A stretch of DNA of 64,000 bases. Origin: an uncultured Chlorobiaceae bacterium. GTDB lineage: Bacteria > Bacteroidota > Ignavibacteria > UBA10030 > SZUA-254. The stretch covers positions 141,581 through 205,580 of the forward strand of contig CAZFXS010000004.1 of assembly GCA_964523395.1 (NCBI GenBank), written 5' to 3'. How positions within the stretch are numbered: position 1 is the stretch's first letter; the number at the start of each line of letters is the position of its first letter. Below, piece after piece: positions 2,995 to 3,096 of the stretch. The position numbers were made by a program, and so were the translations under genes. Under the pieces are notes generated by a model. That model ran no database searches. It worked only from the letters and a program-made list of their open reading frames with translations, and was not told where the DNA came from.

Positions 2995-3096
2995 ATGATC
3001 GGCACAACAATATCCCACTACAAAATTCTGGAAAAATTGGGCGAAGGCGGACCTGACCGCCGAAGCAGTGCACCTTATTGGAAAGTAACATTATGA
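2995..3096 (+). CDS. 33-aa uORF or kinase 5' relic ([33 protein letters not shown]); stop overlaps the kinase ATG
   Basis: First 19 codons encode 18/19 residues identical to the downstream kinase N-terminus; ATGA overlap at 3093-3096. Confidence 0.6.
   Translation: [33 protein letters not shown]

Follow-up and report, generated by a model that had tools for sequence, protein, structure and literature searches.

The window, that is the whole 64,000-nt stretch, contains near its left end a short open reading frame whose stop codon overlaps the start codon of a gene encoding a Hanks-type Ser/Thr protein kinase (Table 1). A gene caller has predicted this leader ORF in a public collection (cluster 8). 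A search for contigs encoding the window leader or the kinase returned neither. Its first nineteen codons correspond to the first nineteen codons of the kinase, and in a codon-by-codon comparison five were identical, thirteen differed synonymously and one differed non-synonymously, with 41 of 57 nucleotides and 18 of 19 residues in common; the residue that differs is Thr4 in the leader and Ser4 in the kinase. The coordinates, the 33-aa peptide and the codon counts had been put forward by a sequence-only reading of this DNA together with the geometry in which the leader TGA overlaps the kinase ATG, and all were reproduced on recomputation.

Table 1. Coordinates of the leader-kinase pair and its upstream surroundings in the window
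Feature	Coordinates	Strand	Details
Tricorn-type protease gene, upstream	5..2734		Tricorn/PDZ/S41 domains
Intrinsic-terminator-like hairpin and T-run	2758..2797	+	13-pair stem (hairpin 2758-2787), T-rich tail; ends the tricorn-type protease gene
Perfect palindrome, 13+1+13 (27 bp)	2948..2974		ATTTCTTCATTGA-T-TCAATGAAGAAAT; arms 100% complementary
Leader ORF	2995..3096	+	33 codons plus TGA; 33 aa
Kinase-like stub of the leader	2995..3051	+	codons 1-19; beta-1 strand and first half of the Gly-rich loop
GC-rich junction hairpin	3046..3061	+	GGCGG-ACCTGA-CCGCC in the centroid fold; 5' arm formed by the Gly18-Gly19 codons
Leader tail	3062..3092	+	freely evolving, kept open and in frame
ATGA stop-start overlap	3093..3096	+	kinase ATG 3093-3095, leader TGA 3094-3096
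Hanks-type Ser/Thr protein kinase with C-terminal TPR region	3093..5222	+	709 aa; Pkinase 2.6e-57, TPR families

The terminator-like hairpin closes the tricorn-type protease gene, and the leader and kinase therefore make up a transcription unit of their own in the window. The perfect palindrome ends 21 nt 5' of the leader ATG and looks like a candidate operator, resembling the site of a dimeric regulator. The tblastn search that had been proposed for the 33-aa peptide across the genome and its relatives was run over the 64 kb of the window, where no further copy was found; the sole other match was weak (64% over 14 aa) and fell on the N-terminus of a second kinase domain at 39044, before which there is no leader of this kind. 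This second Hanks-type domain (about 39044-39829) forms the C-terminal end of a 1178-aa ORF on the forward strand (36305-39841) and is 39% identical to the first within a different architecture.

Public collections of species-representative genomes were scanned with a back-translated DNA pattern for two successive copies of the N-terminus, covering gaps of 9-39 and 40-70 nt, so that long-spacer leaders (gaps of 71-101 nt) are under-sampled. Seventeen loci with a gap of 40-70 nt and three with a gap of 9-39 nt were recovered (20 loci), and 21 of the 24 instances obtained with the two-copy pattern ended in ATGA. Since this pattern imposes the amino acids of the stub, a second scan used a looser anchor made up of the 3' arm of the junction hairpin and the kinase start, leaving the leader N-terminus unconstrained, and returned 57 genome stretches and 75 metagenome stretches. 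Taken together, the scans recovered the arrangement from 55 species-level genomes and from 75 metagenome contigs of separate projects, the genomes being labelled Ignavibacteria, Ignavibacteriales, Ignavibacteriaceae or just 'Bacteroidota', with a few labelled otherwise. The arrangement appears to be restricted to this Ignavibacteria-type lineage, where it stands before more than 100 kinase genes. Among the 70 kinases of the first 80 loci, 67 from Gemmatimonadota/Acidobacteriota had no self-similar upstream ORF, and only the three of locus L002 had one.

Because the same architecture recurs in these genomes and contigs, the leader is a member of a lineage-wide family and neither a one-off relic nor an assembly error. 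The sequence-only reading had itself raised the concern that the leader might be unique to this assembly or the result of mis-assembly, which the recurrence lays to rest. Assembly artefact or chance similarity is a negligible prospect, with nothing found in its favour, both for this reason and since a degenerate two-copy pattern had a single match in the window but none in 100 shuffled versions of it.

The closest relative of the window kinase (75% identity) is found in an Ignavibacteriales MAG at L002, where three tandem kinases are each preceded by a stub of the window kind that begins MIGQ[IT], continues to [GD]EGG and belongs to an ATGA-ended leader. The kinase genes of the family form tandem arrays in L002 (1170-8490, in the order kinase-TolB-like, kinase-TPR, kinase-TPR), and tandem-array genes and their leaders are chained through successive ATGA overlaps in L002 and in the upstream regions of L082, L155 and L158. 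The next-closest orthologue (L001, 71% identity) is leaderless, which shows that the kinase can function as a gene without a leader in front of it.

The anatomy of the leaders was examined at 123 distinct anchor-based sites that were not selected on the leader N-terminus. A kinase-like stub was present at 110 of these and lost at thirteen (about 10%). The sequence-only reading had considered that orthologous leaders might prove decayed and uncoupled from the kinase start; an exact ATGA stop was found in 72 of the 110 stub-bearing sites, and 101 of the 110 stopped at ATGA or within about 30 nt of the kinase ATG. About 35% ended other than in ATGA, including 21 that stopped 1-30 nt before the ATG, eight that overlapped the kinase by 11 nt and nine that stopped elsewhere. 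The distance from start to start was 2 mod 3 in 55 of 65 leader-kinase pairs, a rule that held for 17 of the 24 distinct lengths (range 68-173 nt), and leader length across the family ranged from 23 to 80 codons. The tail was free of stops in the ATGA frame at 76% of sites, compared with 45% and 52% for the other two frames of the same DNA. The ATG was kept in 45 of 46 stubs with a score of at least 80, and 54 of 63 stubs retained it in the less selected, anchor-based sample. The leader ATG is itself overlapped by the stop of the gene before it in 12 of 58 cases. Sequence comparison across the loci shows selection to retain the leader ATG, its frame and an uninterrupted path to the kinase start.

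Twenty of the 'second copies' were themselves leaders, giving leader-leader-kinase arrays with serial ATGA junctions (L089, L094, L173, L174, L176, L183 and L204) in which the upstream stub was the more decayed copy. An intact second N-terminal copy with its own ATG followed the leader wherever this could be judged, including leaders found incidentally inside retrieved loci, although most sites came from search patterns that required such a copy; in L094 no further copy is seen beyond the second leader.

Many leaders carried in-frame insertions of 30-130 nt that left the ORF unbroken. A strongly folding in-frame insert of about 84-116 nt, encoding 'MSQ..PRT..VSG..FEDP' and predicted to form two hairpins (-47.6 kcal/mol with context), was located after GEGG in many leaders, including L002 (1081-1175 and 4058-4152), L107, L111, L118, L130, L146, L203 and L212. 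Partial copies of this insert elsewhere in the loci suggest that it may be a small palindromic repeat element, and an Rfam scan of three loci with a long structured spacer gave no match. Palindrome-like insertions of 24-130 nt also occurred within the kinase-like stub itself, always in frame and stop-free (L101, L106, L129, L121, L124, L125, L127, L131, L143, L152, L163, L175 and L197), and resemble the in-frame palindromic elements described from other bacteria.

Nucleotide substitution was compared within the 33-codon leader class (n=19). Stub codons 2-19 had a pS of 0.74 and a pN of 0.13 (pN/pS 0.18) and codons 2-19 of the kinases themselves a pS of 0.735 and a pN of 0.093 (pN/pS 0.13), while tail codons 25-33 had a pS of 0.59 and a pN of 0.61 (pN/pS 1.02). 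A ratio of 0.18 in the stub, next to a ratio of 1.02 in a tail that yet remains stop-free, indicates that selection acts on the stub at the level of its amino acids, and that in the tail it keeps the frame open but leaves the sequence free. Such a comparison of leader orthologs had been recommended by the sequence-only reading, and its proposal that the leader is selected and coupled to the start of the kinase is supported by the low ratio of the kinase-like part at saturated pS, along with a frame, an openness and a stop position that are conserved where the arrangement recurs, in over 100 independent assemblies. Purifying selection on the amino acids is also what is expected of a conserved-peptide uORF, and gene conversion could contribute to the ratio observed here.

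When leaders were compared with their own kinases (65 pairs), pS was 0.79 and pN 0.108 (ratio 0.14). Between the window stub and the L002b stub, pS was 0.74 and pN 0.067, with a pS of 0.80 for the kinase body. At identical amino acids the same codon was used in a fraction of 0.446 for a leader and its own kinase and 0.418 for random leader-kinase pairings (P = 0.06), which is plain saturation with no avoidance of shared codons. The suggestion that the leader re-encodes the kinase N-terminus with deliberately different synonymous codons is thereby rejected, and strong ongoing homogenisation of the stub with the adjacent kinase copy seems to be absent as well. In kinases and leaders alike, residues Gly16-Glu17-Gly18 were encoded as GGC GAA GGC far more often than expected from the Gly codons used at positions 3 and 19, a preference that may be due to selection against internal SD-like GGAGG/GAGG or to a motif prone to recombination.

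The per-position amino-acid profile of the stubs equals that of real kinase N-termini, and lineage-specific residues are common to a stub and its own kinase (ETIL/ETIL, GGGG/GGGG). A kinase-like profile and shared residues of this sort would be produced by conversion as well as by selection for mimicry, and several loci document exchange or duplication. L086 carries a perfect 99-nt tandem duplicate of the spacer and the 19 N-terminal codons (reverse strand, about 3060-3260), which is a very recent duplication or possibly an effect of amplification or assembly. This locus is from a single-cell genome labelled KSB1, and its 99-nt unit, though in frame with the copy that follows, includes a TAG. 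The L162 leader has a tract of 43 nt that matches the kinase N-terminus at a related locus with 97.7% identity. L100 (about 185-292) and L165 (about 3921-4027) share a 107-nt block, and L107 (about 6623-6805) and L203 a block of about 185 nt, each 98-100% identical; these blocks run from the hairpin at the end of the stub through the spacer to about kinase codon 22, ending at about +66/67 of the kinase, within flanks that are 60-85% identical and an upstream context that is unrelated. L155 and L158 showed the converse of this pattern in a fixed-offset comparison, a procedure that is invalid for insertion-containing leaders. The pattern of an identical unit in diverged flanks was rare, with two clusters among 84 loci, and no conversion donor with at least 52 of 57 nt identical was found among same-genome kinases, of which 1-6 paralogues per genome were sampled.

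Given the perfect 99-nt tandem copy, the leader-leader-kinase arrays and the mosaic loci, we infer that the leader arose by partial tandem duplication or by non-allelic recombination at the Gly-loop coding sequence GGCGAAGGCGG. Following this origin it would have spread with the expanding kinase family. The sequence-only reading had offered a relic of a replaced paralog as one of two possibilities. As a single accident this relic finds no support in view of the recurrence and the kept frame and openness, although the origin is clearly duplicative or recombinational (L086, the arrays and the mosaics). A pseudogene or one-off relic is ruled out by the kept frame, openness and ATG, by the pN/pS of 0.18 and by the occurrence in 55 species-level genomes.

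The same loci would fit a tentative alternative, which is considered rather unlikely, that the stub is a tolerated recombination scar, the functionless leftover of partial duplication or non-allelic recombination between the 5' ends of paralogous kinases. Selection would then act only for kinase expression, just those scars surviving that are open and end at the kinase start, and the stub would be protein-like since it was recently a real kinase N-terminus or is repeatedly overwritten by kinase N-termini. The perfect duplicate in L086, the more decayed upstream copies of the arrays, the kinase-like tract of L162, the mosaics L100/L165 and L107/L203 with the reverse pattern in L155/L158, the residue profile identical to that of the kinases and a continuum of decayed stubs are all consistent with a scar. 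Most stubs, however, are synonymously saturated relative to their own kinase with few amino-acid changes, the excess of codons shared with that kinase is marginal, the sampled same-genome kinases provide no donor at the above threshold, and the stubs of the window and L002b keep their pN of 0.067 while the pS of the kinase body saturates. Repeats of 57 nt with about 73% identity and identical runs of 8-20 nt should moreover be poor substrates for RecA-type conversion. Orphan modules in the Rhs/CdiA polymorphic toxin loci are fragments left by recombination at a conserved motif, and are similar in forming arrays of truncated copies bounded by a conserved coding motif, with recombination among paralogues and a mosaic history. 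In contrast, the stubs described here are N-terminal, lie upstream of the gene, span 19 codons and persist within open, translationally coupled frames, not as fragments that have fallen silent. As the kinase-like profile occurs together with documented conversion or duplication (L086, L162), the low pN/pS of the stub could be partly imported rather than selected in place. On balance, some direct selection on the leader peptide is moderately favoured over a tolerated, occasionally refreshed scar.

A more doubtful idea is that the unit of about 98 nt comprising the hairpin, the spacer, a new ATG and the 19-codon copy is a selfish intragenic insertion. It is conceivable, if improbable, that such a unit spreads between paralogous kinases by gene conversion with the Gly-loop codons as homology arms. 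With similarly low plausibility, it would persist because it brings a replacement start and N-terminus and turns the interrupted original N-terminus into a stop-start-coupled leader. If true, this would be an intron-like solution that needs no splicing, the damage being repaired at the level of translation.

The junction after the stub is conserved in a different manner. After Gly19 most leaders read GGNGGR-CYTG-YCCGCC-GNARCC, which corresponds to a hairpin with the Gly codons in the 5' arm and a CYUG loop (family consensus GGC GAA GGCGGA CYUG UCCGCC GAA GCC). Third codon positions are fixed at this junction and second positions vary by transitions, and an apparent peptide motif P-[VA]-R-R-[SN] is thus explained by the nucleotide conservation pattern of the hairpin. 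The hairpin could be formed in 91% of alignment cells, part of the 3' arm having been imposed by the search anchor. Its covariation was not above that of shuffled controls (56 of 500 shuffles reached it; P = 0.15-0.24 in a separate test).

The conservation of this junction in a pattern unlike that of a protein, the proportion of cells in which the hairpin can form and its persistence at a few sites with a decayed stub would agree with a nucleic-acid element in which the hairpin, its CYUG loop and the adjoining sequence are the conserved object and the ORF is incidental. Such an element would work at the RNA or DNA level, for instance as a site of protein binding, processing or recombination. 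It is an improbable account, as it leaves the conservation of frame, the stop-free tail and the amino-acid conservation of codons 1-19 unexplained, the covariation is within the range of the shuffled controls, much of the 3' arm is imposed by the search anchor, and other spacer types lack such a hairpin.

A Gly codon in the 5' arm of a hairpin also recalls programmed translational bypassing. In T4 gene 60, bypassing involves a Gly codon in the 5' arm of a stable tetraloop hairpin, a conserved nascent peptide and a matching downstream sequence. A similar recoding event here would take off at Gly19 of the leader and land on Gly19 of the kinase, making the stub the N-terminus of the mature kinase. 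The present loci share with gene 60 a conserved nascent peptide 5' of a Gly codon situated in the 5' arm of a stable tetraloop hairpin and a matching Gly-loop sequence, 98 nt downstream, and the residues of the stub are constrained just as those of genuine kinase N-termini are. Nevertheless, bypassing is very improbable, since no stop follows the take-off codon (GGA is followed by CCT in the window), the Gly19 codons of the window differ in class (GGA in the leader and GGC in the kinase) and so do not match as take-off and landing sites, and the spacer persists as a conserved open frame up to the kinase ATG, although a bypassed gap would need no such frame. The intact downstream copy with its own start also speaks against it, to the extent that this copy was not required by the search patterns.

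The window fold was no more stable than that of shuffled sequences (z = +0.97), its only persistent feature being the junction hairpin, and the kinase start was unpaired in the centroid structure. These two results give no support to a leader whose translation unmasks a structured kinase start; with the start not sequestered, coupling is not obviously needed to open it. SD-like purine cores at -7 to -12 were found at 64% of leader-coupled kinase starts, compared with 42% of leaders and 41% of leaderless kinases. In the window the tail contains a weak purine block, GGAAAG (3080-3085), at -13 to -8 of the kinase ATG, and no SD-like sequence was found 5' of the leader ATG.

The interpretation preferred here, and judged probable, is that the leader belongs to a lineage-wide family of genuine translated leaders that hand ribosomes to the kinase start by termination-reinitiation. 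Ribosomes would initiate at the leader AUG, terminate on the AUGA and reinitiate on the kinase AUG, possibly assisted by the SD-like purine block inside the tail, and kinase synthesis would in this way be tied to translation of the leader. Both the translation of the leader and the ribosome hand-over are what we infer from conservation. The stub may stay kinase-like because the peptide is under purifying selection, because kinase 5' ends occasionally overwrite it by conversion, or for both reasons, and the peptide, if selected, could mimic the kinase N-terminus. In H. volcanii and E. coli, 13 of the 14 ATGA pairs that were tested proved to be strictly coupled (Huber et al. 2019, PMC6728339). 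The leader-kinase pairs resemble the ATGA/TGATG pairs of that study in comprising co-directional ORFs with a 4-nt stop-start overlap conserved across relatives and an SD-like motif inside the upstream ORF. They likewise present the features expected of a termination-reinitiation pair, namely the ATGA overlap and a juxtaposition conserved beyond chance. They differ in that the upstream partner of the putatively coupled pair is a leader of 23-80 codons that copies the downstream N-terminus over its first 19 codons.

The leaders were also compared with other known classes. Arrest peptides such as SecM, MifM, ErmCL and TnaC have conserved residues near the C-terminus and the peptidyl-transferase centre, and in arrest leader peptides alternative RNA structures gate the downstream RBS. 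The kinase leaders share with such regulatory peptides a short 5'-leader ORF expected to influence the downstream gene and a conserved peptide. Unlike them, the conserved part is N-terminal, the C-terminal tail is neutral (codons 25-33), leaders of anything from 23 to 80 aa occur and no sequestering or switch structure is predicted, the only recurrent RNA structure in the leaders being the 5-6 bp junction hairpin, with covariation that is not significant. A neutral tail of variable length, lacking a conserved motif, sets the leaders apart from arrest and attenuation peptides.

MicroProteins are small proteins derived from one domain of a larger regulator that act as competitors, as in the plant LITTLE ZIPPER proteins. 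The similarity lies in a small protein that is homologous to part of the presumed target (18 of 19 residues in the window, with shared lineage-specific residues) and is kept at the amino-acid level. The leaders differ in being bacterial and translationally coupled on the same mRNA, the likeness being one of sequence, and a strict structural mimic is hard to reconcile with the in-frame insertions that some stubs contain. Closest overall are the ATGA-coupled gene pairs and the conserved-peptide leader ORFs. Four leader peptides matched no Pfam or NCBIfam family at E <= 1, public records name these leaders 'hypothetical protein', and a full-text literature search found no paper describing a kinase-mimicking leader arrangement.

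Leader ORFs and stop-start coupling are both well known, while a leader peptide that copies the N-terminus of the downstream protein is not, least of all one conserved at the amino-acid level in dozens of species and before many paralogous eukaryotic-like Ser/Thr kinases. If the peptide is functional, the leaders would offer a bacterial example of a kinase controlled by a co-translated piece of its own sequence. If it is instead a tolerated scar, partial 5' duplications in large paralogous families would be made harmless by translational restart, and such scars can imitate conserved small proteins in dN/dS screens. For annotation, the more than 100 'hypothetical proteins' of 23-80 aa located before the kinases of Ignavibacteria MAGs become one explainable class.
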